A stretch of DNA of 53,608 nt from a virus (taxonomy: Duplodnaviria; Caudoviricetes): positions 1 through 53,608 of the IMG/VR virus record IMGVR_UViG_3300025646_000055. The stretch is one strand, 5' to 3'. Shown here piece by piece: positions 2,680 to 41,374 of this stretch (positions within the stretch are counted from its first letter, which is position 1; each line of letters starts with the position of its first letter). The notes beneath the pieces were generated by a model. That model searched no databases and was not told the origin of the DNA. It was given only the letters and a program-made list of their open reading frames with translations. Position numbers and translations under genes: made by a program.

Positions 2680-3087
2680 ATGAAAAAATCAGATTTACAA
2701 CAGCGACTTGAAGACGTAGAAAAAGAACTTGCAGAAGCAAAGGCATTGCTTGCAAAAGTAGAAACTAAGTCAAGGGTCGTGGACTCGGTGAAGGATATAC
2801 CTAATAGAGATTGGTTTATAACTTCTGGAGGAGAGGTAGAAGATGTTAGTAGCGACGACCTTAACCAACTGTCAACCAAAGAACGAGCAGAGGCAGTACT
2901 TGCGCTTATTCAGCTAATTGAAATCCATGCAGCTATTGAGCAGGAACTTAATGCGGACTATAATATTCTGATAGTAAGTTCTTGTGAAAATAAATACATT
3001 CACTTCTATTTTGAATCAGATGAACTTGCAGAAGAGTTTCAATCCAAGCACAAGGACTTAATCGAAACCGTAAGAAAAGGGTTATGA
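2680..3087 (+). CDS. hypothetical protein with N-terminal coiled coil
   Basis: ORF within an operon. Confidence 0.75.
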   Translation: MKKSDLQQRLEDVEKELAEAKALLAKVETKSRVVDSVKDIPNRDWFITSGGEVEDVSSDDLNQLSTKERAEAVLALIQLIEIHAAIEQELNADYNILIVSSCENKYIHFYFESDELAEEFQSKHKDLIETVRKGL

Positions 3088-3620
3088 AAACAACACTAAA
3101 CCTAATTAGGCTTTGTCAACCGTGTGAGGAATCATGGAAAACCTTACTAACCTTTCTCAACAAGACAGAGGCAGACCATGAAGAATTAAGCATCAGAACG
3201 ATTCTTGATGCTTGCGGCGTATCAGATGCTATTTGGGCGCTAAGAGCAGTCGATGGTCATGATAAAGAGATACGTCTATTTGCTTGTGATTGTGCAGAAT
3301 CTGTACTTCATATCTTCGAATCCGAATATCCTAACGACAACAGACCAAAAATGGTTATTGAAACAGCTAGACGATACGCTAATGGACAAGCCACAAAACA
3401 AGAGTTAAATGTTGATGGTTCTGCTGCTTGGAATGCTGCTTGGAATGCTGCTTGGTCTGCTGCTAAGGATGCTGCTAGTTCTGCTGCTTGGTCTGCTAGT
3501 GATGCTGCTTGGTCTGCTGCTGGGAATGCTGCTAGGGTTGCTGCTTGGGGTGCTGTTTCCGCTGCTGATAGTGATGTCGAACTAGAAAAACAAAAAGAGT
3601 TTTTACTTAAGTACATTTAA
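3084..3620 (+). CDS. phage protein with Imm5-like helical domain and xAAW repeats
   Basis: RLFACDCAESVL...DNRPKMVIETARRYA followed by SAAW/NAAW repeats. Confidence 0.7.
   Translation: MKTTLNLIRLCQPCEESWKTLLTFLNKTEADHEELSIRTILDACGVSDAIWALRAVDGHDKEIRLFACDCAESVLHIFESEYPNDNRPKMVIETARRYANGQATKQELNVDGSAAWNAAWNAAWSAAKDAASSAAWSASDAAWSAAGNAARVAAWGAVSAADSDVELEKQKEFLLKYI
3420..3570 (+). repeat. degenerate 12-nt coding tandem repeat (NNTGCTGCTTGG)
   Basis: About 12 units encoding xAAx. Confidence 0.85.
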
Positions 3621-7344: not shown

Positions 7345-7431
7345 TATATATTGATTTTAGGGGTTATTACAATTATAAATATTACAGTCATATTAGAGTA
7401 ATATATTTAGTAAAAAACGTCATATTAAAAT

Positions 7432-7462
7432 TTGGATATTCGAAATATTATTTGTATATTTA
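7432..7462 (+). promoter_or_regulatory. sigma-A-type promoter
   Basis: TTGG-N19-TATATTTA. Confidence 0.7.
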
Positions 7463-7484
7463 CATATTAATAAAGATAAAGGTT

Positions 7485-7904
7485 ATGGAAAAAGAAAAAT
7501 CATTTTACGATACTTACCGCGAAAGGGTAAAAGAAGGAGCTCTTAAATTACCTAAAGCACCTACAGAAGTTGAACAAAACATTTTGTGGTTGAAATCAAT
7601 GGCTATTGAACGTATTGAAGAGATTGATAAGTTACTTGATGATAAAATTAATACATTCAGAGTCCATAACCGTAAAGAGATTACACTTTCTGAGGCTATG
7701 AAGTTAGATAAATCTGAAGGTGATTATAAATTCGGTTTTACAGAACAATATGTAAACCTTTTAATGCACTATGCTTATGAAGCAGGTAAGAAGTCAAGAG
7801 AGGATGATTTCAAAATGGCTACTGAAAGAATGAATAAAGCTCTCGAGGCTATTACCGAAATAGTTGATGAAGCTGGTTACATTGAATATCCTGAAAGTTA
7901 TTAA
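7485..7904 (+). CDS. hypothetical protein (start revised to ATG 7485)
   Basis: AAAGGTT-ATG downstream of the promoter. Confidence 0.75.
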   Translation: MEKEKSFYDTYRERVKEGALKLPKAPTEVEQNILWLKSMAIERIEEIDKLLDDKINTFRVHNRKEITLSEAMKLDKSEGDYKFGFTEQYVNLLMHYAYEAGKKSREDDFKMATERMNKALEAITEIVDEAGYIEYPESY

Positions 7905-8413: not shown

Positions 8414-8487
8414 CTAGATGCGATCCATTGGTGTGGTTACCTCACTTGGACTGAGGGTTATTGAGAGTTCGAGTCTCTCCATCTAGA
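8414..8487 (+). tRNA. tRNA-Pro(TGG), atypical D arm
   Basis: CTAGATG/CATCTAG; CCTCA-CTTGGAC-TGAGG. Confidence 0.7.
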
Positions 8488-8492
8488 CATAT

Positions 8493-8565
8493 GCCTTCGT
8501 AGCTCAGTTGGTAGAGCTCCTGATTTGTAATCAGATGGTCATCGGTTCGAATCCGGTCGAAGGCT
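8493..8565 (+). tRNA. tRNA-Thr(TGT)
   Basis: Cloverleaf, loop TTTGTAA. Confidence 0.92.
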
Positions 8566-8600
8566 CAAATGTTGAGTCATATCAACGTCATACCAGATAT

Positions 8601-8631
8601 TTGGTTATATAAATATATATTCGTATATTTA
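8601..8631 (+). promoter_or_regulatory. sigma-A-type promoter, followed by boxA-like GTTCCTTGACAT (8668-8679)
   Basis: TTGG-N19-TATATTTA. Confidence 0.75.
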
Positions 8632-8693
8632 CCAAGTTGAAAAATGATAAGATAATTCAACAAAAAAGTTCCTTGACATCTTGAAAAACCTGA

Positions 8694-8780
8694 GGAGGCG
8701 TGGCAGAGTGGTCGATTGCACCGGTCTTGAAAACCGGAGGTCGCGAAAGCGGCCCGTAGGTTCGAATCCTACCGCCTCCG
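8694..8780 (+). tRNA. tRNA-Ser(TGA)
   Basis: Cloverleaf with long variable arm, loop CTTGAAA, G73. Confidence 0.95.
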
Positions 8781-8786
8781 CAATGA

Positions 8787-8879
8787 AATGAATGTGCCGA
8801 CATAATGGCGGTATTGGTGCAACTCCAATTAGTCAGTGAAAAAACGAGCCACAAGTAGTTCAAACCTACCACATTCATT
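8787..8879 (+). ncRNA. tRNA-like RNA with extended acceptor stem and 4-bp T stem
   Basis: AATGAATGTG/CACATTCATT; ATTGG-TGCAACT-CCAAT; GTAG-TTCAAAC-CTAC. Confidence 0.5.
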
Positions 8880-8885
8880 AATTAT

Positions 8886-8959
8886 TGTCCTGTCGTATAA
8901 TGGGAGTACATCTGATTTTGGTTCAGAGAATGGAGGTTCGAATCCTTCCGGGACAACCA
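8886..8959 (+). tRNA. tRNA-Gln(TTG), CCA encoded
   Basis: Cloverleaf, loop TTTTGGT. Confidence 0.92.
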
Positions 8960-8961
8960 AT

Positions 8962-9055
8962 TCTTAAACTGATGGAGCCCGAAAGGGAACGTAGAAGCGG
9001 TAGGATAAATTTGCAAAGAGGCCTACAACGTTTGCAACTCAAATTTGGTTTAAGA
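8962..9055 (+). ncRNA. unassigned structured RNA with probable pseudoknot
   Basis: Closing TCTTAAACT/GGTTTAAGA; CCC-GAAA-GGG; GTAGG/CCTAC pairs into the loop of the TTGCAAA/TTTGCAA hairpin. Confidence 0.5.
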
Positions 9056-9259
9056 CTTCTAAAAGTTACTTGTAACGATAGAAACCCGCGAGATGAGTTC
9101 ATCTCTCCTAACTCTCACTTAATTGTGATTAAAACACGCGAGATAATGGTTAGGATTTCAGAACTCCGTTACATTTAACCAGGCTAGACTGATTAACTGC
9201 AGTAAAGGTTTAGAATGATGCCCTCGGATGCTGCCGCACCTATGGGTAGTTTTAGAAGT
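9055..9259 (+). ncRNA. unassigned ~205-nt multibranch RNA
   Basis: ACTTCTAAAA/TTTTAGAAGT closing helix; TGTAACG/CGTTACA; TCCTAACT/GGTTAGGA. Confidence 0.5.
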
Positions 9260-9268
9260 AAAATATAT

Positions 9269-9344
9269 TGCGATGGCGGTACAGAGACGTTCTCATGAGA
9301 CGTATTGGGTAGCTCCCCTCCGAGGTTCGATTCCTCAATCGCAA
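9269..9344 (+). tRNA. aberrant tRNA(CAT): reduced D arm, long variable arm
   Basis: TGCGAT/ATCGCA; ACGTT-CTCATGA-GACGT; GAGG-TTCGATT-CCTC. Confidence 0.55.
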
Positions 9345-9374
9345 CAAATCTTGCAAGACTAGGTTGATAACCTT

Positions 9375-9444
9375 GTATAAGTCGTCTAAATATGTAGGAC
9401 ACCGGCGGGGTCGGAGATTTGGGTTCGAGTCCCATTCTTATACA
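9375..9444 (+). ncRNA. tRNA-like RNA with collapsed anticodon loop
   Basis: GTATAAG/CTTATAC; D and T arms present; CCGGC-GGG-GTCGG. Confidence 0.6.
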
Positions 9445-9458
9445 AAACAATCAAATTT

Positions 9459-9531
9459 GACTTCGTAGCTTAGCAGGTAGAGCACTCCGCTTTTAACGGA
9501 GGGGTCGTGAGTTCGAGTCTCACCGGGGTCA
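9459..9531 (+). tRNA. tRNA-Lys(TTT)
   Basis: Cloverleaf, loop CTTTTAA. Confidence 0.93.
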
Positions 9532-9648
9532 CAAGCTGTTCTGCATCAGAAGTGCTGGTTAGTGAAACACCTAATCGATGAGCCCATCAAAATGTGAGTG
9601 GTTTTTTACTGTGGCGGTTTCCACTCAAATTAAAAACACAGCCCACCT

Positions 9649-9731
9649 GCCCGAGTGTTGGAATTGGTAGACAAAGCGGTCTTAGAAACCGTGGCCTTAA
9701 TGGCTTGAGAGTTCGAGTCTCTCCTTGGGTA
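9649..9731 (+). tRNA. tRNA-Leu(TAG)
   Basis: Cloverleaf with variable arm, loop CTTAGAA. Confidence 0.93.
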
Positions 9732-9831
9732 CAATTGTTAAAGCAGTTATAGTAAAGAACACGTGATAACTTTACTATAAGCGGTACATATGTAAAAGAA
9801 AACTGCTGGATGTGCCGAACAGTTAGAATTT

Positions 9832-9919
9832 AGTCAGGTGGCGTAATTGGTAACGTAGGTGGTTCAATTCCACAATACCCATGGTTAGAGTGTTACAGGT
9901 TCGAATCCTGTCCTGACTA
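9832..9919 (+). ncRNA. AGTCAGG family copy 3 (possible Leu-CAA)
   Basis: Same acceptor and T arm; GTGG-TTCAATT-CCAC gives a CAA anticodon in a 4-bp stem. Confidence 0.7.
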
Positions 9920-9999
9920 CCTAGCCTTTGTTTGGGGCAAGCGCTCGTACACGTTGCGGGCAAGTCAATACTAAACACACACAGCTGGGAAGACAGCGG

Positions 10000-10108
10000 A
10001 GTCAGGTGGTGGAATTGGCAGACACAAACCCTTTAAGGCGCCAGGGGTTGTAACAGATGAGTTCTCATCCAATAGTGCAGATTACAGGTTCGAATCCTGT
10101 CCTGACTA
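10000..10108 (+). ncRNA. AGTCAGG family copy 4
   Basis: Same acceptor and T arm; enlarged anticodon and variable arms. Confidence 0.75.
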
Positions 10109-10114
10109 CAAAAT

Positions 10115-10262
10115 GTTGGTATCCAAGTGGGTGAAGTAGGGGATATACATTTAAATAAAACACGAACGGTGAAAATATGGAATCGGCCGATAAACATAGA
10201 AGTAACAACGAAGCCCGTGACACCAAGTAGATGCCTCCACGTGGCGGTGTTGGATAACCAAC
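10115..10262 (+). ncRNA. unassigned ~150-nt RNA
   Basis: GTTGGTATCCAA/TTGGATAACCAAC closing helix. Confidence 0.45.
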
Positions 10263-10280
10263 CAAATCTACGATTAAAAT

Positions 10281-10377
10281 AGTCAGGTGGCGGAATTGGT
10301 AGACGCTTTTAGGGATTAACTCACCAGAGGGTTGTATCTGTTATGGATACGTACAGGTTCAAATCCTGTCCTGACTA
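10281..10377 (+). ncRNA. AGTCAGG family copy 5
   Basis: Same acceptor, D and T arms; irregular anticodon arm; GTATC/GATAC variable arm. Confidence 0.75.
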
Positions 10378-10381
10378 CAAT

Positions 10382-10456
10382 GCACCTTTAGCTCAGTTGG
10401 TTCAGAGCGTTACCCTTACAAGGTAGATGTCGGTGGTTCGAATCCATCAAGGTGCA
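10382..10456 (+). tRNA. tRNA-Val(TAC)
   Basis: Cloverleaf, loop CTTACAA. Confidence 0.93.
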
Positions 10457-10467
10457 CAATTTATTCA

Positions 10468-10537
10468 ACCTTTAGTCGAAGTGGCTTAAGACAATCGGCG
10501 GGAGCCGATAAAACATGGGTTCGAATCCCATAAGGTA
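10468..10537 (+). ncRNA. tRNA-like RNA with a GNRA tetraloop in place of the anticodon loop
   Basis: ATCGGC-GGGA-GCCGAT; ATGGG-TTCGAAT-CCCAT; short acceptor ACCTT/AAGGT. Confidence 0.6.
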
Positions 10538-10607
10538 AAAAGCACAACCTGTTTCCGGTTAATGTGAAATAGAATAAAGGTAAAACAACCAGAGTCGACG
10601 CTGGTTG

Positions 10608-10706
10608 GACCGAGTGGTGAAATTGGTAAACACAAAGGGTGCAGAGCCCTTGGAAGTGGAATGACGTCTGAAGCTTCTGTTGTAGGTTCGAGTCCTACCT
10701 TGGTCA
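10608..10706 (+). tRNA. atypical tRNA-Leu(CAG): G33, very long variable arm
   Basis: GACCGAG/CTTGGTC; AAGGG-TGCAGAG-CCCTT. Confidence 0.6.
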
Positions 10707-10713
10707 CTATTAT

Positions 10714-10796
10714 TGGAGTGTTGAGCAATTGGTTGGCTCGGCAGACTGTAAATCTGTTGCCTTACGGCCTTGGGGGTTCGAGTCCCTCCGCTCCAA
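10714..10796 (+). tRNA. tRNA-Tyr(GTA)
   Basis: Cloverleaf, loop CTGTAAA. Confidence 0.92.
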
Positions 10797-10845
10797 CAAA
10801 TCTTAGGAGTAATTAACCTAAGACTGACAGGTTCGAAACTGTCGA

Positions 10846-10942
10846 TTGATAGTAGTGTAGTGGGCACACTGCTCCCGGGGCGCTCGGTAAAATGAGGCTG
10901 TCCAGGAGCGGGGGTAAAGAGGTTCGAATCCTCCCATATCAA
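10846..10942 (+). ncRNA. tRNA-like RNA with ~45-nt extended anticodon arm
   Basis: TTGATA/TATCAA; GTGT/ACAC D stem; GCTCC...GGAGC long arm; GAGG-TTCGAAT-CCTC. Confidence 0.55.
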
Positions 10943-11110
10943 CTAAGGCTTTAGTCTATCCGAGACGCTAGTAAGGTTGGAGGATAAAGGTGGACGGCAA
11001 TCCACACACTTTTGAATTTGATACACTAGAAGTAGACTCGCCTCTTTGCCGAGAGGTGTTAAAAAATGGTTTCGTGGGCGAGTTTCCATCACAAAAAGCC
11101 GGCCCACCAT

Positions 11111-11184
11111 ACATTGGTAGCTCAATTGGATAGAGCACTTCACTACGGATGAAGGGGTTGAGGGTTCGAGTCCTTCCCAATGTA
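11111..11184 (+). tRNA. tRNA-Arg(ACG)
   Basis: Cloverleaf, loop CTACGGA. Confidence 0.93.
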
Positions 11185-11188
11185 CAAA

Positions 11189-11292
11189 GTTCTATTTGGT
11201 GTAATTAGGCAACACTTCGGTTCGAATCCGAATGCTTTATACAATAAAGTAACAGAGAGGTTGGATGTGGGTTCGAGTCCCACAATAGAACG
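11189..11292 (+). tRNA. atypical tRNA-Ser(CGA)-like with oversized variable region
   Basis: GTTCTATT/AATAGAAC; TTCGG-TTCGAAT-CCGAA. Confidence 0.55.
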
Positions 11293-11297
11293 AGTTT

Positions 11298-11370
11298 GGT
11301 ACTGTAGCTCAGTTGGTAGAGCACCTGATTGAAGCTCAGGGTGTCAGCAGTTCGAATCTGTTCAGTACCA
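11298..11370 (+). tRNA. tRNA-Phe(GAA)
   Basis: Cloverleaf, loop TTGAAGC. Confidence 0.92.
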
Positions 11371-11377
11371 CTTTTAT

Positions 11378-11450
11378 ACATCTATGGTGTTAACGGTTAG
11401 CATGATGGTCTCCAAAACCAGAGGTAAGGGTTCGAATCCTTTTAGATGTG
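11378..11450 (+). tRNA. tRNA-Trp(CCA)
   Basis: Cloverleaf, loop CTCCAAA. Confidence 0.9.
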
Positions 11451-11456
11451 CAATAT

Positions 11457-11528
11457 TCCCCTTTAGCTCAGCGGTAGAGCAGAGAGCTGTTAACTCTAAG
11501 GTCGTTGGTTCGAATCCAGCAAGGGGAG
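11457..11528 (+). tRNA. tRNA-Asn(GTT)
   Basis: Cloverleaf, loop CTGTTAA. Confidence 0.93.
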
Positions 11529-11530
11529 CA

Positions 11531-11612
11531 AATACTTTTGGAAAAGTTGGCACTAGCACCACAGTTGCAAATGTAGGACTAGGTGTAGGTTCGAATCCTA
11601 CTATGAAGTGTT
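11531..11612 (+). pseudogene. degenerate tRNA-like remnant
   Basis: Intact T arm GTAGG-TTCGAAT-CCTAC; poor acceptor and D arms. Confidence 0.4.
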
Positions 11613-11672
11613 TACCACCGAGATGCTGCCGAGCTGAGGAGGTGGTTAAGAAATATCCCTAAATACGGACCA

Positions 11673-11746
11673 CGGTGTGTGGCCAAGATGGTTAAGGCAC
11701 CTCGCTGATAACGAGGAAATCGGAGGTTCAAATCCTCCCTCACCGA
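11673..11746 (+). tRNA. tRNA-Ile(GAT)
   Basis: Cloverleaf, loop CTGATAA. Confidence 0.9.
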
Positions 11747-11779
11747 CTCGTGTAAGAGCACTGTGCTCTAACATAACCT

Positions 11780-11853
11780 GGCGAGGTAGCTCAGTTGGTT
11801 AGAGCGTTGGAGTCATAACCCAAAGGTCATAGGTTCGATTCCTATTCTCGCTA
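11780..11853 (+). tRNA. tRNA-Met(CAT), elongator type
   Basis: GGCGAGG/TCTCGCT; loop GTCATAA. Confidence 0.85.
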
Positions 11854-11865
11854 CAAATAACTTTC

Positions 11866-12045
11866 CGCGACATGGAGAAGTGGGCAAGTTTTGATTTAAG
11901 TAATCAGAGTACTTTGGTTTCTTAAGAAAGGATTAGATTTTAAATGGTGGTGGAGTACTACACCTAATGGAAGTTACTAATCTTAGAAACGTATCTCGCC
12001 GGGGGCATGACCCGGAGATCGTAGGTTCGAATCCTACTGTCGCAA
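11866..12045 (+). tRNA. initiator-type tRNA-fMet(CAT) with ~108-nt D-loop insertion
   Basis: C1:A72 mismatch; CCGGG/CCCGG anticodon stem; loop GGCATGA; D stem GAGA/TCTC split by insert ~11884-11991. Confidence 0.75.
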
Positions 12046-12047
12046 CT

Positions 12048-12264
12048 AAAAGAACAACCTATCGCTCTACGGAGAGGAAACTCAGGACGGCACTGCTTAA
12101 GGTAGGAGATTCAAATTATAGGACCTGGATGTTGCCTATAATCCCTGAATCTCTTATACTACCGAGGCCGCAACACAAAACAGTCTATAAGGGTGAGCAG
12201 CTTGGATAAGGTAGTGGCAACAAGGTAAATGATAGGATAAACAGAATCCTGGTTATGTTCTTTT
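12048..12264 (+). ncRNA. rnpB: compact RNase P RNA-like gene
   Basis: P1 AAAAGAACA/TGTTCTTTT; P2 CCTATC/GATAGG; CR-I GAGGAAACTCAGGA; CR-V ACAGAATCCTGGTTA; CR-II/III-like GCAACACAAAAC and GGGTGAG. Confidence 0.8.
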
Positions 12265-12270
12265 AAATAT

Positions 12271-12346
12271 GGTGTCTGTAGTGTTAGTGGAATAAGCACG
12301 TCAGTTTGTGGTTCTGATAGGATGAGTTCGAATCTCATCAGACACA
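12271..12346 (+). tRNA. tRNA-His(GTG), G-1 encoded, A73
   Basis: Cloverleaf, loop TTGTGGT. Confidence 0.88.
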
Positions 12347-12351
12347 CTAAG

Positions 12352-12471
12352 AAGAGGCAGTTCAAGCTGTAGTTGAGAGGTAGAGTGTATTAATGTCTGA
12401 AAAAGGGTTTATAGTAGGATGGCGTCACTCATTGCACTCAACCAGAAACCCTGCAACACACGGAGCCTCTT
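12352..12471 (+). ncRNA. unassigned pseudoknotted RNA
   Basis: AAGAGGC/GCCTCTT closing helix; interleaved GTTGAG/CTCAAC and AGGGTTT/AAACCCT. Confidence 0.5.
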
Positions 12472-12480
12472 TTTTTTTAT

Positions 12481-12551
12481 GGTTCTTTGACCGAGTGGTT
12501 AGGTGAAGGTCTGCAAAACCTTTTACATTGGTTCGAATCCAATAAGAACCT
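12481..12551 (+). tRNA. tRNA-Cys(GCA)
   Basis: Cloverleaf, loop CTGCAAA, U73. Confidence 0.93.
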
Positions 12552-12564
12552 CAATTATTAATTT

Positions 12565-12648
12565 GGAGAGTAACCCTTGATGGTGATAGGGCTTGCCTGC
12601 TAAGCAATGTGTACATTCGTGTATATGGTTCGAATCCATTGCTCTCCG
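12565..12648 (+). tRNA. tRNA-Ser(GCT)
   Basis: Cloverleaf with variable arm, loop CTGCTAA. Confidence 0.88.
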
Positions 12649-12664
12649 CTAAAAAGGATAAGTC

Positions 12665-13120
12665 ATGAAAATATTTAAACGAGTTAACGGACAAAAGGTT
12701 ACGGATATTGTTGAATATACAATTGATATTATCCGTAAAGACCCATATGTAGAAATACATATAGGAACAGATTCTCAAAGTGAAGGTGAATGGACAACTT
12801 ATGTTACAGCTATTGCATATAGATTTGGTACAAGAGGTGTTCATTATATTTACCACAAAGAACGAGTTCCAAGAATACGTGATAGATACACTAAACTATT
12901 TAAAGAAGCTGAATTAACAATTGAATTAGCTGAATGGTTTACTAAGCGTGTTAAGAGTGTAAGAATAGAATTAGATTTTGATTACAATAAAGATGAAAGA
13001 TATTGGTCTCAAAAATTAATTAGTTCTACAGTAGGTTGGGCACAGGCTTTAGGATACAAAGTTAATGTGAAACCAGTTAAACAAATTGCTACAAGAGCAG
13101 CAGATTATCATTGTAGATAA
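12665..13120 (+). CDS. RNase H-like YkuK/DUF458-family protein
   Basis: IHIGTDSQ...L.KEAELT...IELDFD...KP...ATRAAD. Confidence 0.8.
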   Translation: MKIFKRVNGQKVTDIVEYTIDIIRKDPYVEIHIGTDSQSEGEWTTYVTAIAYRFGTRGVHYIYHKERVPRIRDRYTKLFKEAELTIELAEWFTKRVKSVRIELDFDYNKDERYWSQKLISSTVGWAQALGYKVNVKPVKQIATRAADYHCR

Positions 13121-13132
13121 TTTAAAAAAAAC

Positions 13133-13163
13133 TTGGATATTTAAGATATTGTTCGTATATTTA
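13133..13163 (+). promoter_or_regulatory. sigma-A-type promoter; boxA-like GTTCTTTGAAAT at 13311-13322
   Basis: TTGG-N19-TATATTTA. Confidence 0.75.
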
Positions 13164-13169
13164 CATATA

Positions 13170-13301
13170 ATGAAAAACAAAGAAAAAACTAAAGAAAAAA
13201 AAGAAGATTTTGGATATTTTGATAGGTATAAAAATCAAAATAACCCCAAAACTAAAAAAGAAACATTAGAAATTAGTTTATTTTCTAGATATAAAGATTA
13301 A
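13170..13301 (+). CDS. small Lys-rich peptide (43 aa)
   Basis: ATG a few nt after the promoter core; ends in a CTAGATA/TATCTAG hairpin. Confidence 0.45.
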   Translation: MKNKEKTKEKKEDFGYFDRYKNQNNPKTKKETLEISLFSRYKD

Positions 13302-13337
13302 TTTATCTAGGTTCTTTGAAATCTTGAAAAAACCAAT

Positions 13338-13410
13338 GCTTCCATGGTGTAACGGATGAGCACAAGGCCCTTCTAAGGCTTTAGTTTAGGTTCGAATCCT
13401 AATGGAAGTA
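13338..13410 (+). tRNA. tRNA-Arg(TCT)
   Basis: Cloverleaf, loop CTTCTAA. Confidence 0.92.
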
Positions 13411-13562
13411 CAGCTGTTATCTGAACTAGCACTAGGACGATAACTACCATCAGAGGAAGCTAGTCTCATGGATGGTCCTGTGGGTTGTGACCAGTACACA
13501 TAAAAAGACTCCCACCAAATAGAGTAGGTGACTGCGTTTTTGCATAAAGCTCTATTATTTAT

Positions 13563-13636
13563 CGCCCGTTCGTCTAGCGGTCTAGGACATCGCCCTTTCA
13601 CGGCGAAGATCACGAGTTCGAATCTCGTACGGGTGA
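13563..13636 (+). tRNA. tRNA-Glu(TTC)
   Basis: Cloverleaf, loop CTTTCAC. Confidence 0.93.
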
Positions 13637-13645
13637 CTATAACAT

Positions 13646-13733
13646 AGCAAGGATGAAGGCTGGTGGTGATGCCTCAGTAGTCTCATAAGCTACTACCTCA
13701 ATGAGGGTGCGGGTTCGATTCCCGCCCATGCAA
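13646..13733 (+). tRNA. atypical tRNA(CAT) with long D and variable arms
   Basis: AGTAGT-CTCATAA-GCTACT; CCTC/GAGG variable arm; mismatched acceptor. Confidence 0.6.
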
Positions 13734-13738
13734 CTAAT

Positions 13739-13823
13739 GCACTTGTGGTGAAATTGGTAGACACGCGGGACTTAAAATCCCGTCTCTATTGCAGAGGTGC
13801 CAGTTCGAGTCTGGCCAGGTGCA
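13739..13823 (+). tRNA. tRNA-Leu(TAA)
   Basis: Cloverleaf, loop CTTAAAA. Confidence 0.93.
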
Positions 13824-13831
13824 CATATATT

Positions 13832-13904
13832 GGTCCTATGGTTGAATGGCTACAATGCCACCCTGTCACGGTGCGCGGTACGGGTTCGAATCCCGTTAGG
13901 ACCG
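13832..13904 (+). tRNA. tRNA-Asp(GTC)
   Basis: Cloverleaf, loop CTGTCAC. Confidence 0.9.
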
Positions 13905-14033
13905 CAACTTAATACCGAATCGCGTTAAAGGTGAAGTAGATAACGTGTGGTGAGTTTGGAAGGTCTCACATAAAACAAAACCAAAACCTTAAGTCTACCA
14001 CGAAGAGGTGTTATCGGTGACCTCTTCATTTAT

Positions 14034-14107
14034 GGGCTGGAATGTTCCAAGGCTGGCGAATCTCCCTTGCACGGAGATTGTGGTGAGTTCGATTCTCACC
14101 TGGTCCA
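14034..14107 (+). tRNA. tRNA-Ala(TGC)
   Basis: G3:U70, loop CTTGCAC. Confidence 0.85.
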
Positions 14108-14200
14108 CATAAAAGTTGCGCAGTACGCGATTGACCGGAGTGTTTGAGACGTCCTTCCTCCAAGGCATCGATGGGTAACCAATCCCTTCCACTTTTATAC

Positions 14201-14272
14201 GCGGATGTAGTATAGTGGCTATTATGCCTGATTTCCAATCAGGAGATGTGAGTTCGATTCTCTCTATCCGCT
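14201..14272 (+). tRNA. tRNA-Gly(TCC)
   Basis: Cloverleaf, loop TTTCCAA, U73. Confidence 0.9.
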
Positions 14273-14277
14273 CAAAA

Positions 14278-14350
14278 GCGAGATTAGCTCATTTGGTAGA
14301 GCGTCTGCTTGCCAAGCAGAAGGTGGTCGGTTCGAATCCGATATCTCGCT
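14278..14350 (+). tRNA. tRNA-Gly(GCC)
   Basis: Cloverleaf, loop TTGCCAA. Confidence 0.93.
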
Positions 14351-14352
14351 CA

Positions 14353-14457
14353 AAAAGGTAATAAACTCAAAACCGAGCGATGCTTTAAAAAAGATTCACA
14401 ACTTTAGAGGTCGTTGAGTTGGGTGGTAGTAAATGTGAATACCACCTATTACCTTTT
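14353..14457 (+). ncRNA. unassigned three-way-junction RNA with loop-loop complementarity
   Basis: AAAAGGTAATA/TATTACCTTTT closing helix; ATTCACA/TGTGAAT kissing loops. Confidence 0.55.
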
Positions 14458-14463
14458 ATTTAT

Positions 14464-14542
14464 AGGGTAGTAGAGGAGTCAGGTTTATCTCGCTACATTT
14501 GGGATGTAGAGCACGCTGGTTCGAATCCAGTTTACCCTACCA
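14464..14542 (+). tRNA. tRNA-Pro(TGG), CCA encoded
   Basis: Cloverleaf, loop TTTGGGA. Confidence 0.9.
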
Positions 14543-14621
14543 TAGTATGGTCTAACAAATGCCTGTGCCAGAATGTCGACCAAAATGCAGGGATATGTAG
14601 GTAATGACTTACCATTTCACA

Positions 14622-14695
14622 GGTCCTTTAGCTCAGATGGTTAGAGCAACTGACTCATAATCAGTAGGTCGTAGGTTCAAATCCTACAAGGACCA
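14622..14695 (+). tRNA. tRNA(CAT), probably Ile2 (lysidine type)
   Basis: GGTCCTT acceptor; ACTGA-CTCATAA-TCAGT. Confidence 0.85.
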
Positions 14696-14725
14696 CTAAA
14701 AAATTAAAGGTTTTTTCAAGATAAT

Positions 14726-14794
14726 TTGGATGTTTGAAATTTTGTTTGTATATTTATGTATAATAAAGATTTAAAACAAAACGTTCTTTAACAT
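14726..14794 (+). promoter_or_regulatory. promoter (14726-14756) plus boxA-like CGTTCTTTAACAT (14782-14794)
   Basis: Motif match; directly upstream of the large RNA. Confidence 0.75.
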
Positions 14795-14804
14795 ATTAAA
14801 AAAT

Positions 14805-15750
14805 TTAGGGTTGCTTGAAATCCTTTCAGATTATTATTGACGCGTAACAGTCCGGCTGACGATTATGTAATAGTTTGATAAAGAGTAATGAGCCGTAAGG
14901 CTACGAAAGGGGATAGTCTCACACTACCTCGCTTGGCAACAAGTTCATTCAAGCAAGCAACGTTCTAAGCTCTACCTAAGAGCGCTGTCGGACCAACCGG
15001 CAGATAAGGAGAAAGTTAGTGGAATAAGTCCCTTAGGAAAGGATAAAACCAGAGCCGATCGGTGAGGTTAAAATGGGTAGCTCCATGCTTATCCATGCTA
15101 AACTAACAAAACCTGAACAGAATAAGTTGTAGAATATGAGTTTGAGTCTCGCTAAGACAAAGGCAAGTATTCATTATAAGAGGTGAAAGGGTAATATATA
15201 TAACTCCCGGAGTAATCTTGAAGTAAGGCACAGTAGGATTAGCAGTCCGAAACGCAGTTGGCGTGTCATATTTTGTAGCTCAAAAGGTTATGAAGTGACT
15301 GTTGGGGCACGTCAAAGTGAGTTAAATAACTTGTAAGTTAGCTCAGTTGGTAGAGCATCTGTCTCTTAAACAGAATGTCGAAGGTTCAACTCCTTCACTT
15401 ACTATATGAATAATATAGAATAAAAAACGCAAAGCCCCCAACGATAGTGAAAAACAAATCACCTAATTCCGTACTCAAAAGAGAATACGGAGCTTTCAAA
15501 ACTCGCAAGGTAGAGAAAGTTTGATTGGATTTCGCACCTAATTTCTTAGCGGAAATGAATGGCTCGCAAGGTCAGGGGAAGAAAAAAAATCGAGTAGTTT
15601 CACTATGACATGAGAAATGCCACTCATTAAAAAAGGCGGTGATGTTGCTAGACTTCCTTGGTGGGAGTGGATAAGTTTTTAACAAGTAGGTTTGCCCCTA
15701 TTTGGTACGAAAATGAAGGTAGTAATATATAACGTATAATCTCAGCGTTT
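14805..15750 (+). ncRNA. large (~950 nt) structured ncRNA, GOLLD-like; ends approximate
   Basis: No ORF in the track; higher GC than flanks; many GNRA hairpins; CCACTC/GAGTGG long-range pair; ends TAATCTCAGCG + T-run; adjacent to a tRNA array. Confidence 0.7.
15332..15404 (+). tRNA. tRNA-Lys(CTT) nested in the large ncRNA
   Basis: TCTGT-CTCTTAA-ACAGA; canonical D and T arms. Confidence 0.88.
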
Positions 15751-22814: not shown

Positions 22815-23228
22815 ATGGCTTTTAGTCCTAGAAAAATATCACCTTTAGATTTAAAACCTAGTGTAGGTATTGGGGTATCTTTACCTTTTTCTTCACCTAC
22901 AGCTTTTAAAACTACTTATACTACAAAAGATGCTATTAAATCTAATTTAATTAATTTCTTTTTAACTAATAAGGGTGAAAGATATTTAAACCCTTCATTT
23001 GGAGGTGATTTACGTAGATTTATTTTTACACAAATAACAGATGGGAATTTAGATTTTTTAAAAGAAGATATTCAATCTCAAGTTTCTCAATATTTTCCTA
23101 ATGTTATAGTTAAAGAATTATCTATATTTCAAGGTCAAGGTACCCAAGAACAACAAGTTACAATAAAAATGGTTTATAATGTAGCAAATACTAACACAAC
23201 AGATTCTTTAGAAATACTTTTTAATTAA
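22815..23228 (+). CDS. baseplate wedge subunit, gp25/GPW family
   Basis: IKSNLINFFLTNKGERYLNPSFGGDL. Confidence 0.9.
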   Translation: MAFSPRKISPLDLKPSVGIGVSLPFSSPTAFKTTYTTKDAIKSNLINFFLTNKGERYLNPSFGGDLRRFIFTQITDGNLDFLKEDIQSQVSQYFPNVIVKELSIFQGQGTQEQQVTIKMVYNVANTNTTDSLEILFN

Positions 23229-25090
23229 TGGCTAAGAATAGAGATATAAAATATATAAACAGAGATTTTGGTTCTTTCAGACAAAGTCTTATTGATTATG
23301 CTAGGACCTATTTCCCAACATCATATAATGATTTTTCCCCTGCTTCTCCAGGTATGATGTTTATAGAAATGGGTTCTTATGTAGGTGATGTTCTTTCATT
23401 TTATTTGGATAACCAATTACAAGAAACATATTTACAATTTGCTCGTCAAGAAAACAATTTATTTGAATTAGCTTACATGTTTGGTTATAAACCTCGAGTA
23501 ACTGGGGTTGCAACTACTAATATTGATTTCTATCAACAAGTACCAGCTATAGAAAGTGGTTCTGGGGATTATATTCCTGATTATTCTTATGCTTTATTTG
23601 TAAATCAAAATGCTTCTATTAAATCTACAAGTAACAGTGCTGTAAGATTTTTAGTTCAAGATGATTTGAATTTTGCATCTTCAGGGTCTTTAGACCCAAC
23701 TGAAGTAACTGTTTATTCAGTTGATGGAAGTGGTAACCCAACATTTTTCTTATTAAAAAAATCAAGAAAATCTATTTCAGCTACCATTAATACTACTACA
23801 GTTTCTGTAGGTGCTCCTCAATCATTTTTTACAACTACTATTAATGATTCTAATATTGTAGAAATTTTAGATATTGTTGATTCTGATGGTAATGAATGGT
23901 ATGAAGTAGATACTTTAGGACAAGAAACCGTTTTTGATACTGTAAGAAATTCTAATGCTTTTGATCCTAATTTTACTTCAGATTCAGGGGATGTTCCTTA
24001 TCTTTTAAGATTAAGAAAAGTACAAAGAAGATTTGCTACTAAATTTTTAAATTCAGGATCTATTCAACTTCAATTTGGTGCAGGTAAAACTACAGATGAT
24101 GATGAAAGTATAATTCCTAATCCTGATAATGTAGGTATAGGGTTACCTTTTGAAAAGGTAAAATTAACTACAGCTTTTTCACCAACTAATTTTATATTTA
24201 CTAATACTTATGGTATTGCTCCTTCTAATACTACTTTAACTATTAGATATTTAACTGGAGGGGGTATTGAAGCTAATATTCCTTCTAATGATTTAACTAC
24301 TTTAACTGCTAATATTGAGTTTTTAAACAGTAATTTAGACCCAACTACAGCACAAACTGTTTTTAATTCAATAGCTGTAACTAATCCAACTGCTTCAAGT
24401 GGAGGTGGTGATGGTGATTCTATAGCAGAAATTAGGCAAAATGCTATTTCAAATTTTTCTACTCAACAAAGAACAGTAACTGCTGATGATTACTTAATTA
24501 GAGCTTTAAGTATGCCTTCTAATTATGGTTCAGTTTCTAAAGCTCATATTACTCCTGTTTCTTTAAAAGATTCACCTAATGCTGAAAATACCCCAATTTT
24601 AGATTTATATGTTTTAACATATGATCAAAATAAAAATTTAGCAATCCCTACACAAGCTTTAAAGCAAAACCTTAGAACTTATCTTTCTCAATATAGAATG
24701 GTAGGTGATACTGTTAATATAAAAGAAGCTTTTATAGTTAATATAGGTATTAATTTTGAGATAATAGTATTACCTGATTATAATAGTAGTGAAGTAATTT
24801 TGAATTGTATTAATTCCTTAATAGATTATTTTAATATTGATAATTGGCAGATTAATCAACCTATTATTTTAAAAGAATTAAATGTATTATTAGATAGAGT
24901 AGAAGGAGTTCAAACTGTTAAAAATATAGAAATAATAAATAAAACAGGTGAAAATTTAGGATATTCAAGATTTGGATATGATATATTAGGTGCTACTGCA
25001 GGTAATGTTATTTATCCTTCCTTAGACCCTATGATTTTTGAAGTTAAATATCCTACAACCGATATTCAAGGTAAAGTTGTATCATTTTAA
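23228..25090 (+). CDS. baseplate wedge subunit (T4 gp6 / baseplate J-like)
   Basis: YVGDVLSFYLD...MFGYKP; GGGDGDSIAEIRQNA...QQRTVTADDY. Confidence 0.9.
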   Translation: MAKNRDIKYINRDFGSFRQSLIDYARTYFPTSYNDFSPASPGMMFIEMGSYVGDVLSFYLDNQLQETYLQFARQENNLFELAYMFGYKPRVTGVATTNIDFYQQVPAIESGSGDYIPDYSYALFVNQNASIKSTSNSAVRFLVQDDLNFASSGSLDPTEVTVYSVDGSGNPTFFLLKKSRKSISATINTTTVSVGAPQSFFTTTINDSNIVEILDIVDSDGNEWYEVDTLGQETVFDTVRNSNAFDPNFTSDSGDVPYLLRLRKVQRRFATKFLNSGSIQLQFGAGKTTDDDESIIPNPDNVGIGLPFEKVKLTTAFSPTNFIFTNTYGIAPSNTTLTIRYLTGGGIEANIPSNDLTTLTANIEFLNSNLDPTTAQTVFNSIAVTNPTASSGGGDGDSIAEIRQNAISNFSTQQRTVTADDYLIRALSMPSNYGSVSKAHITPVSLKDSPNAENTPILDLYVLTYDQNKNLAIPTQALKQNLRTYLSQYRMVGDTVNIKEAFIVNIGINFEIIVLPDYNSSEVILNCINSLIDYFNIDNWQINQPIILKELNVLLDRVEGVQTVKNIEIINKTGENLGYSRFGYDILGATAGNVIYPSLDPMIFEVKYPTTDIQGKVVSF

Positions 25091-40408: not shown

Positions 40409-41374
40409 ATGATATCATTATTAAAATTAATATTAGAGGATAATGGTAATCCTAAAGGTATTATACTAGCTGGAGGTGCTGGTGTTGGAAAATCATATGT
40501 GGTTAGAAATTTATTAGGAGATTTAAATGAAAAAACTGGAATTTTTACCCCTAAAGGTTCAAATTTAAAATTTAAATATATGAACCCTGATGATATTGTA
40601 GAAAAAGAAGGAACTTCTTTGGGGGTAGCTATGGGGAAATTTAAAGAAATATTCCAGGATGCTCAAAATAAAAAAGAAAATATCATTTGGGATACTACCG
40701 CAGCTAATATCAAAAATACAATGGCTCAAATGCCGGGGTATGATAAATTTATGGTTATGGTTTATACTCACCCTATAATTTCGTTGTATCAAAATGCAAA
40801 AAGGGAAAGAACATTACCTATGGAAGCTGCTATTAAAACTTGGGATGGTGTTTACAGTAATATAGAGGAATATAAAAAATTATTTGGAGATAAATTTGTT
40901 TTAATTAAAAATGTTATCCCTGGATATGAAAAACAGGTTCAAGAATTTGATAAAGCTGTAGCTGGTGGTAAGGATAGTTTAAAACAATACTTAGAAAATT
41001 TAATAGCTAACAATCAAGAACAATTTAAATCTTCATTTTCAAAAGAATTTGAATTTGAAAATAAAGAAATTGAACAGGCGTTTAATGATGCTTTACCTGA
41101 AACCTCTTACGATGAGAAAAAAGATAAGAGTATTTTAAAAGGAGTGAAAAAAGAATTTCAAAAAGATTATTTAAAAAAGAATGAAGATCCTGGTTCTAAA
41201 GTATTAGAAAAAAAACTCCAGTCAGCTCGTAATACAAAAGAAAAAAATGAACAAAATTACAATGAAGATTTAGAAGGTATTGTTAATAAATTAACATCTT
41301 CTAAATTTAAAGAAATTACCGAACCTAATTCTGAAGAAGATATCAAATCTAAATTTAATTCTTTTTTAAAATGA
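40409..41374 (+). CDS. P-loop kinase (zeta toxin / AAA_33-like)
   Basis: LAGGAGVGKS, NPDD, IWDTT, NAKRER. Confidence 0.8.
   Translation: MISLLKLILEDNGNPKGIILAGGAGVGKSYVVRNLLGDLNEKTGIFTPKGSNLKFKYMNPDDIVEKEGTSLGVAMGKFKEIFQDAQNKKENIIWDTTAANIKNTMAQMPGYDKFMVMVYTHPIISLYQNAKRERTLPMEAAIKTWDGVYSNIEEYKKLFGDKFVLIKNVIPGYEKQVQEFDKAVAGGKDSLKQYLENLIANNQEQFKSSFSKEFEFENKEIEQAFNDALPETSYDEKKDKSILKGVKKEFQKDYLKKNEDPGSKVLEKKLQSARNTKEKNEQNYNEDLEGIVNKLTSSKFKEITEPNSEEDIKSKFNSFLK

Follow-up and report, generated by a model that had tools for sequence, protein, structure and literature searches.

Miniaturised RNase P RNA of bacterial type-A ancestry predicted within a phage tRNA array

RNase P RNA is regarded as a hallmark of cells and organelles. 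Can a phage carry one of its own, and if so, would that RNA be an active enzyme? This question is raised by a locus in IMGVR_UViG_3300025646_000055 (Duplodnaviria; Caudoviricetes), a 53,608-bp IMG/VR virus record that is estimated to be ~33% complete and that we analysed over its whole length (hereafter, the window). Positions 12046–12270 of its + strand, within an array of tRNA genes, hold a predicted RNase P RNA of reduced size. An earlier note, made from the letters of the sequence, had placed a minimal RNase P RNA at 12048–12264. These limits proved accurate, as they mark the outer ends of helix P1 and as the two covariance models used here match 12046–12270 (RF00010) and 12046–12272 (our model R1). 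Both the review PMC11143913 and the phage-ribozyme paper PMC10879173 describe 5′ maturation of tRNAs as a host function.

A focused Rfam scan of the 631-nt stretch 11850–12480 matched RF00010 (RNaseP_bact_a) to 12046–12270 on the + strand (225 nt, model positions 1–367) with 44.1 bits and an E-value of 2e-12, which applies to that scan. The alignment covers P1, P2, a shortened P3, GAGGAAA-UC-GG, both strands of P5 and GCAA, and further the P15–P17 region, the AG-U-AAUG stretch and AACAGAA-CC-G-UUA. It deletes P18 and all positions between the two strands of P7. RF00010 was the best model of its clan, with three lower-scoring clan matches (names not displayed) hidden by clan competition. R1, which was built from six of the fetched sequences described below with 26 nested pairs and without P1, P4 and P6, matched 12046–12272 at 227 bits. 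Folding energy did not discriminate (z −2.19 on the + strand and −1.87 on the − strand) and is not useful as evidence for an RNase P RNA.

The structure model derived for the locus comprises 64 base pairs, all of which were standard pairs when checked one by one. Its elements, including those known as conserved regions (CR), are the following, in window coordinates.

12046–12270, +: whole miniature RNase P RNA gene (RF00010, model R1, pair check)
12047–12056 / 12256–12265, +: helix P1 (duplex-energy test)
12058–12063 / 12231–12236, +: helix P2 (covariation, 40 sequences)
12065–12067 / 12072–12074, +: helix P3, cut to 3 bp with a UACG tetraloop (CUC-UACG-GAG, 12065–12074)
12074–12087, +: CR-I with J3/4 and the 5′ strand of P4 (GAGGAAACUCAGGA; RF00010 consensus alignment)
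12079–12081 and 12083–12086 / 12248–12254, +: P4 pseudoknot, seven pairs, with U12082 bulged (which we take to be the equivalent of E. coli U69)
12088–12091 / 12167–12170, +: helix P5 (covariation)
12093–12097 / 12196–12200, +: P6 pseudoknot, 5′ strand CUGCU and 3′ strand inside the L17 loop (covariation)
12101–12105 / 12159–12163, +: helix P7, closing the hairpin 12106–12158 (covariation)
12167–12173, +: 3′ strand of P5 and J5/15 (GCCGCAA; RF00010 alignment of GCAA)
12174–12176 / 12214–12216, +: helix P15 (covariation)
12183–12187 / 12203–12207, +: helix P16/17, whose L17 loop holds the 3′ strand of P6 (covariation)
12208–12213, +: L15 loop AAGGUA, with GGU at 12210–12212
12217–12230, +: J15/2, CR-IV-like (GCAACAAGGUAAAU; RF00010 alignment), where P18 is missing
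12240–12255, +: CR-V (AACAGAAUCCUGGUUA), containing the 3′ strand of P4 (12248–12254)

Relatives of this RNA were fetched with patterns that combine the CR-I and CR-V strands at a spacing of 110–230 nt, from IMG/VR, from JGI metagenomes (58 loci) and from GTDB genomes (nine loci in metagenome-assembled genomes, MAGs). At a cut-off of E ≤0.01, R1 gave 67 matches of 195–294 nt in 211 sources (44 of 94, 9 of 100 and 14 of 17). By source, 24 are in IMG/VR contigs, 42 in metagenome loci (of 58) and one in a deposited phage record. Some of the metagenome contigs duplicate IMG/VR records, and several of the sequences do not differ from one another; the 35 strongest matches contain 28 distinct sequences. 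The matching IMG/VR contigs are 14.6–416 kb long, and one of them is a complete 171.7-kb genome with terminal repeats. The deposited record, LR756508.1, is a 484-kb uncultured phage whose copy scores 74.1 bits. Each of five phage records carried a single copy, and RF00010 scores of the relatives were 41–67 bits. Among the loci fetched by pattern, R1 left L124, L203, L212, L213, 16 of the 58 metagenome loci and all nine MAG loci unmatched. An Rfam scan of eight of these MAG loci (L193 was omitted for its size) gave neither an RNase P nor a tRNA match. The pattern GGTGAGC...AAGGT...ACAGAA was too loose, as only two (L068 and L077) of the 117 stretches that it returned matched R1. A ‘distant’ blastn search of 11850–12480 against 50,697 phage records returned four records, which aligned to flanking tRNA parts only and left the RNase P segment unmatched.

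The helices of the core are kept by compensatory change. Identical duplicates were removed from the alignments before counting, and members with a long P3 that were mis-aligned at the 5′ end (L006, L133, L143, L149, L160, L077 and L165) were excluded from alignments A4 and A5. Across 22 distinct sequences, 97.2% of 827 cells paired, with double changes at 26 of 38 pairs; none of 500 shuffles reached the observed value, and sliding the partner by 1–3 columns left 34–47% pairing. Across 40 distinct sequences, 98.2% of cells paired and 27 of 34 pairs had double changes (234 double-change cells), which again was reached by 0 of 500 shuffles; the alignments were fitted to the nested helices of R1 and so favour those helices. 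P4 and P6 lie outside R1, and together these two pseudoknots paired in 99.8% of cells, with double changes at 6 of 12 pairs and no shuffle out of 500 as high. P4 paired in 100% of cells in the 40 sequences (double changes at three of seven pairs), and its freely varying position 12084/12250 is A-U in 29 sequences, G-C in eight, C-G in two and U-A in one. P6 paired in 99.4% of cells (three of five pairs), and its second pair reads UA in 18 sequences, AU in 14 and CG in three. For the nested helices, double changes were found at all six pairs of P2 (97.8% of cells paired in the 40 sequences), all four of P5 (100% of cells), four of five in P7, all three of P15 and all four of P16. P3 varies little: every cell pairs, one of its three pairs is invariant in the 22 sequences, and the two varying pairs have double changes in one and four of them. 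Other family members have GAAA, CACG or UAAG as the P3 loop, or a long P3 of ~55 nt. The first MAFFT alignment mis-registered P1, which was excluded from R1 and assessed by duplex energies instead. The two ends of the same RNA form duplexes of −9.3 kcal/mol on average versus −2.4 kcal/mol for ends of different RNAs, and for 21 of 22 sequences the own duplex is more stable than any of the cross duplexes.

Most of the helices described in the earlier note are recovered in this analysis. P1, P2 and P3 (CUC-UACG-GAG) consist of standard pairs, and the first two are kept by compensatory changes. A P4 had been drawn as TCAGGA/TCCTGG; the helix exists and shares four core pairs with the P4 given above, but the pairing is not identical. 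The helix ACTGCTTA/TAAGGTAGT has to be given up, since 70.3% of its cells pair compared with a shuffled mean of 70.4%, and it shows no covariation. Its 5′ segment instead forms P6 with 12196–12200, and its 3′ segment corresponds to the L15 loop and the 3′ strand of P15. The note had also listed motifs for CR-I to CR-V. The CR-I variant GAGGAAACUCAGG, the CR-IV-like AAGGUAAAUG and CR-V ACAGAAUCCUGGUUA align to the Rfam consensus, whereas CR-II and CR-III were not found in the window RNA, because the domain that carries them is absent.

The identity of the RNA is supported by the full-length RF00010 match, the family of 67 matches, the covariation of the core helices including both pseudoknots, and the phage context (baseplate genes, the tRNA array, a GOLLD RNA and the related complete 171.7-kb genome with terminal repeats). 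The same observations bear out the proposal of a phage-encoded minimal RNase P RNA inside a tRNA array. Taken at the level of sequence, they identify 12046–12270 (+) as a miniature RNase P RNA that descends from bacterial type A and is carried by a phage, and indicate that a family of such RNAs is kept by selection in large phages. The RNA is almost certainly a genuine RNase P RNA homologue that is maintained by selection. What it retains is the catalytic domain: P1, P2, P3, P4 with the bulged U, P5, P6, P15 with GGU, P16/17, CR-I, the CR-IV-like segment and CR-V.

The specificity domain (S-domain, P8–P14) is gone in all members, and with it the T-loop binding site is lost. A single hairpin stands between the P7 strands instead, which in the window is 53 nt long (12106–12158; fold z −3.94). 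In the relatives inspected this insert ranges from roughly 17 nt to ~130 nt, and the smallest members (L208, L199 and L202) have a GAAA tetraloop on the hairpin. A recurrent asymmetric loop (5′ RAG, 3′ GUUAUA-like) adjoins P7 and is conserved in the inspected relatives. We suggest, by inference only, that this loop and the hairpin form a new strut that stands in for the lost inter-domain contacts. P18 is also missing in the window RNA. Six members (L125, L177, L165, L175, L206 and L209) carry a hairpin insert between the 3′ strand of P2 and the ACAGAA of CR-V.

How does this RNA compare with known RNase P RNAs? Like bacterial type-A RNAs (RF00010; E. coli M1 RNA and Thermotoga maritima RNA), it has the P1–P6 and P15–P17 topology with both pseudoknots, the bulged U of P4, the J5/15 adenines, the GGU of L15, and the CR-I, CR-IV and CR-V strands. 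Unlike them, it measures 225 nt (195–294 nt in the family) against a consensus of 367 positions, lacks P8–P14, the T-loop binding site and P18, has a P3 of 3 bp, and reads AAC/GUU in P4 where the RF00010 consensus reads AAG/CUU. It is also phage-encoded inside a tRNA array and scores below the gathering threshold. We file it as a new reduced variant of type A and not as a standard member, because its score lies below that threshold and both the S-domain and P18 are absent. Type-B RNAs (RF00011) lack P6, P16 and P17 and have type-B-specific helices instead. Type B was ruled out, as P6 and P16 are present and covary and RF00010 is the best model in the clan. Type-T RNA (RF02357) comes from archaea, where it acts together with archaeal proteins as the sole RNase P of the cell. 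Lai et al. are said to have described it in 2010 in Thermoproteaceae (Pyrobaculum) as an RNA of ~200 nt whose specificity domain is nearly gone. Type T and the phage RNA are thus both natural RNAs of ~200 nt with the specificity domain lost or nearly lost. Unlike type T, the phage RNA has bacterial type A as its best clan model and possesses P15–P17, P6 and the GGU loop. The likeness probably lies in what was lost and not in ancestry.

Reduced forms are also known from the laboratory and from other natural lineages. The engineered ‘mini’ catalytic-domain (C-domain) RNAs (PMC11143913) are likewise free of the S-domain. They are laboratory deletions, whereas the phage form is natural and kept by selection, and it goes further in lacking P18 too and in having a conserved small hairpin and loop on P7. 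Diverged RNase P RNAs below Rfam cut-offs, without P12, P13, P14, P18 or the CCA-binding motif, have been described in bacteria of the Candidate Phyla Radiation (CPR; Lui et al. 2021, PMC8172020) and in Mycoplasma fermentans (cited there). These RNAs are cellular and keep their specificity domain, those of CPR bacteria being less reduced, whereas in the phage family that domain is wholly removed and GGU is kept. A phage ribozyme with a related proposed role is the theta (hepatitis delta virus-like) ribozyme, which adjoins phage tRNA genes and was proposed to free tRNA maturation from host nucleases (PMC10879173). Theta ribozymes are small and self-cleaving, and act in cis on 3′ trailers; the phage RNase P RNA would act in trans at the 5′ end and is homologous to the cell's own enzyme. 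Full-text searches of the literature, with thin coverage of subscription journals, turned up no earlier description of an RNase P RNA encoded by a phage, and none is reported in the available portions of PMC11143913, PMC9964418, PMC8172020, PMC6582537 and PMC10879173.

The genomic setting links the RNA to tRNA genes. It lies on the same strand as the one-strand array of 29 tRNA genes called by ARAGORN (window 8414–15405). Elsewhere in the window, a 620-aa protein (23228–25090) matches baseplate-wedge PHROGs and shares 45–46% identity with proteins from Flavobacterium phage vB_FspM_immuto and from Microcystis phage Mel-JY01. The apparent DNA runs that contain the stretch come from freshwater metagenomes. 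The features that flank the RNA or close the array are the following.

11866–12045, +: upstream flank, a tRNA-like gene of ~180 nt (read from the sequence and folded)
12272–12347, +: downstream flank, tRNA-His, beginning 7 nt past the last P1 pair (12265)
15258–15748: GOLLD RNA at the 3′ end of the tRNA array (Rfam 162.8 bits versus a gathering score of 150)

In the upstream tRNA-like gene, an acceptor stem of 6 bp, a long variable arm and a canonical T arm are present, whereas a ~100-nt insert takes the place expected for the anticodon arm; the gene stops 1–2 nt before P1. Neither ARAGORN nor the Rfam tRNA model called it at 11866–12045; the Rfam scan of 11850–12480 gave weak tmRNA/T-arm matches inside it (12020–12037). 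Of 36 family loci, several of which are duplicates, 25 have a tRNA on the same strand whose start lies no more than 1 nt from the 3′ end of the model match. An 80-aa open reading frame (ORF) that overlaps the RNase P RNA (11967–12209) was judged spurious, because the relatives carry indels of many different lengths there.

We next consider what such an RNA would do. We prefer to read it as an active enzyme that serves phage pre-tRNAs, to which we assign a probability of about 0.72 from sequence data. The RNA would be transcribed within the array of ~30 genes and freed by ordinary tRNA end-processing, in which RNase P itself may make the 3′ cut, because the RNA directly adjoins the tRNA-like gene on its 5′ side and is separated from tRNA-His by a few nucleotides on its 3′ side. 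Its protein partner is likely the RnpA of the host, because no phage rnpA was found: PF00825 was detected neither in the window nor in five phage records, one of them complete. The enzyme would cleave the 5′ leaders of phage pre-tRNAs with the help of metal ions at P4, as is usual for RNase P. Substrate recognition would take place at the acceptor end and not at the tRNA elbow, with N-1 read via the J5/15 adenines and C74 via the GGU of L15. Loss of the elbow-reading domain would lower affinity and relax specificity, which would suit the insert-bearing tRNAs of the array. The earlier note had proposed that the RNA matures the phage's own tRNAs, possibly including the aberrant ones, and this remains a reasonable inference.

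Several observations are consistent with this mechanism. According to PMC11143913, bacterial C-domains of types A and B without the S-domain cleave pre-tRNA with or without protein, albeit with lower affinity. The same review links the bulged U of P4 (U69) to metal binding and the acceptor stem, and describes contacts of A248 in J5/15 with N-1 and G+1 and of the L15 GGU with the RCCA end. In the family, the bulged U (U12082) is kept in 40 of 40 sequences. A12172 and A12173 of J5/15 occupy the place of E. coli A248/A249; the latter is invariant (40/40) and the former is an A in 36 of 40. The three GGU positions of L15 are kept in 39 (G), 33 (G) and 35 (U) of 40. On the substrate side, the nucleotide at −1 is U in 19 of 25 window tRNA genes, and C74, the C right after the discriminator, is present in 24 of 25. 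Their 3′ trailers are stereotyped (genes 8493–15404), with CAA in 14 of 25. A weak hint of expression comes from the metatranscriptome run X19, in which a 233-nt contig spans 12120–12352 with three differences; the two that are listed (12176 C>T and 12207 T>C) each preserve pairing. The other putative RNA runs covered short or tRNA parts only. This check used four runs labelled or guessed to be RNA, as contigs only and with DNA possibly present in the libraries, and contigs cannot show transcription, ends or level.

A number of points weigh against an active enzyme or its classification. The RF00010 score of 44.1 bits is under half the gathering score of 100. The covariance-model check proposed in the earlier note therefore has two sides, as the match is significant by E-value (2e-12) and falls below the Rfam gathering score. 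Moreover, scans in gathering mode, of the whole window by E-value and of the whole record all miss the match, which surfaces only if the search is confined to a short stretch. No copy is present in Flavobacterium phage immuto and Microcystis phage Mel-JY01, which by their baseplate protein are the nearest cultured relatives. Conservation of the J3/4 adenines and of ACAGAA in the family has to be read with the fetch patterns in mind, which partly force the invariance of GAGGAAA, TC, GG, ACAGAA, CC and GG. The letters of CR-I and CR-V are freely tested only by the N positions of the patterns and by L068, L077 and L197, which were fetched otherwise; L068 and L197 vary at fixed positions of CR-I/CR-V, with compensation. 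As only two of 25 window tRNA genes encode CCA, the conserved GGU can pair at most with C74. In E. coli, deletion of P18 alone slows cleavage more than 3000-fold, and deletion of the S-domain abolished cleavage of pre-tRNA-Tyr (PMC11143913). A reduced RNA without compensating contacts may thus be a poor enzyme.

The E. coli deletions also form the basis for an improbable alternative, in which the RNA is a protein decoy. It would keep its RnpA- and substrate-binding surfaces while catalysis is weak or dead, and would titrate host RnpA or pre-tRNAs, thereby shutting down or redirecting host tRNA maturation. Both P18 and the S-domain are lost in the phage RNA, and in E. coli such losses make the reaction more than 3000-fold slower or stop pre-tRNA from being cleaved (PMC11143913); in addition, any role would go through the host protein, as no phage rnpA was found. 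However, a decoy has no need for an intact catalytic core, yet the bulged U, the J3/4 adenines, ACAGAA, the J5/15 adenines and the L15 GGU are kept. The geometry of P4 and P6 is preserved by compensatory change, and the gene is placed in a tRNA array beside its presumed substrates.

About as improbable is a specialised ribozyme, whose real substrates would be unusual RNAs of the array and not ordinary pre-tRNAs, namely the insert-bearing tRNA-like genes, the GOLLD-embedded tRNA or its own precursor. Without an elbow-reading domain, the phage RNA resembles an E. coli deletion variant for which pre-4.5S RNA is still a substrate and pre-tRNA-Tyr no longer is (PMC11143913), and the window offers such candidates in at least five tRNA-like genes of 94–125 nt, the ~180-nt one that adjoins the gene, and the GOLLD RNA with its inner tRNA at 15258–15748. 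Against this, family members sit in arrays of ordinary tRNAs, GOLLD occurs in only one of the 17 family loci scanned (L137), and U-1 and C74 are general among the ordinary tRNAs of the window. That the RNA is a decaying pseudogene, a functionless and eroding fragment of host rnpB picked up by the phage, would fit its small size, missing domains and sub-threshold Rfam score, but is already strongly disfavoured, given at least 40 distinct sequences on many contigs that keep every core helix through 234 double-change cells, deletions that affect the same peripheral modules only, a single copy in each phage record, and cellular-genome loci from the same pattern that never match R1 (0/9) and showed no RNase P or tRNA match where scanned (8/8).

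An active enzyme for phage pre-tRNAs thus remains our preferred reading. A more far-reaching version of it is rather doubtful, if somewhat less so than the decoy or the specialised ribozyme. In that version, large phages would use trans-acting RNase P RNAs without a specificity domain, down to ~195 nt, to take over tRNA 5′ maturation. The RNA would capture host RnpA, mature the ~30 phage tRNAs including insert-bearing ones that the host enzyme would handle poorly, and draw protein away from host RNase P, with the P7 loop and hairpin as a new strut.

The finding suggests that phages can bring their own tRNA-maturing ribozyme. Phage RNase P RNAs would extend the translation-related genes of large phages (tRNAs, tmRNA and ribosomal proteins) to a ribozyme for tRNA 5′ processing. 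They would also show, as an experiment made by nature, which features a catalytic core requires when it has lost P18 and the specificity domain. The gene would be invisible to routine annotation, because its score is under the Rfam cut-off and long scans filter the match out. A dedicated family model would probably reveal many more such genes.

A second, GC-richer group of reduced RNase P-like RNAs of ~230–250 nt was seen alongside this family (L003/L131, L132, L134, L137, L140, L144, L147, L161, L164 and L170), with RF00010 scores of 41–67 bits. In L170 the archaeal model matches best (67.7 bits). Its members come from very large contigs (292 kb, 727 kb and 220 kb), where they occupy tRNA-rich regions. 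In L137, the RNase P-like RNA lies within ~1.3 kb of a GOLLD RNA and ~3 kb of a tmRNA (transfer-messenger RNA). Other RNAs were noted as well: L002, the tRNA region of a related phage, has a group I intron at 7420–7637 (76.5 bits, above the gathering score), and L006 has a ‘freshwater-1’ RNA match at 880–942 slightly under threshold (66 bits versus 72).

The window has further unusual tRNA features. Over-long tRNA matches of 94–125 nt, which presumably bear inserts, lie at 37–161, 412–505, 10000–10108, 10281–10378 and 10608–10706. One ARAGORN tRNA has a 2-nt anticodon call, and a tRNA-Sec-like match falls under threshold (36.8 bits versus 47); the coordinates given jointly for these two are 10465–10540 and 12564–12648. 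The tRNA-Lys at 15331–15405 is embedded within the GOLLD RNA. Between tRNA-His and tRNA-Cys lies a 128-nt stretch (12351–12478) that terminates in a stem and a T run. The contig of a related phage (run X13) omits exactly this stretch, which gives it the look of an insertion/deletion element or of a small RNA that is optional. A 151-aa ORF inside the array (12665–13120) matches Pfam PF04308 (RNase H-like) with an E-value of 6.5e-23; it was rejected as a partner of the RNase P RNA, with one weak partial match among all loci. Outside the array, the window ORFs 3084–3620 and 40409–41374 gave Pfam matches to Imm5-like immunity-protein domains and a Zeta-toxin-like P-loop kinase domain.

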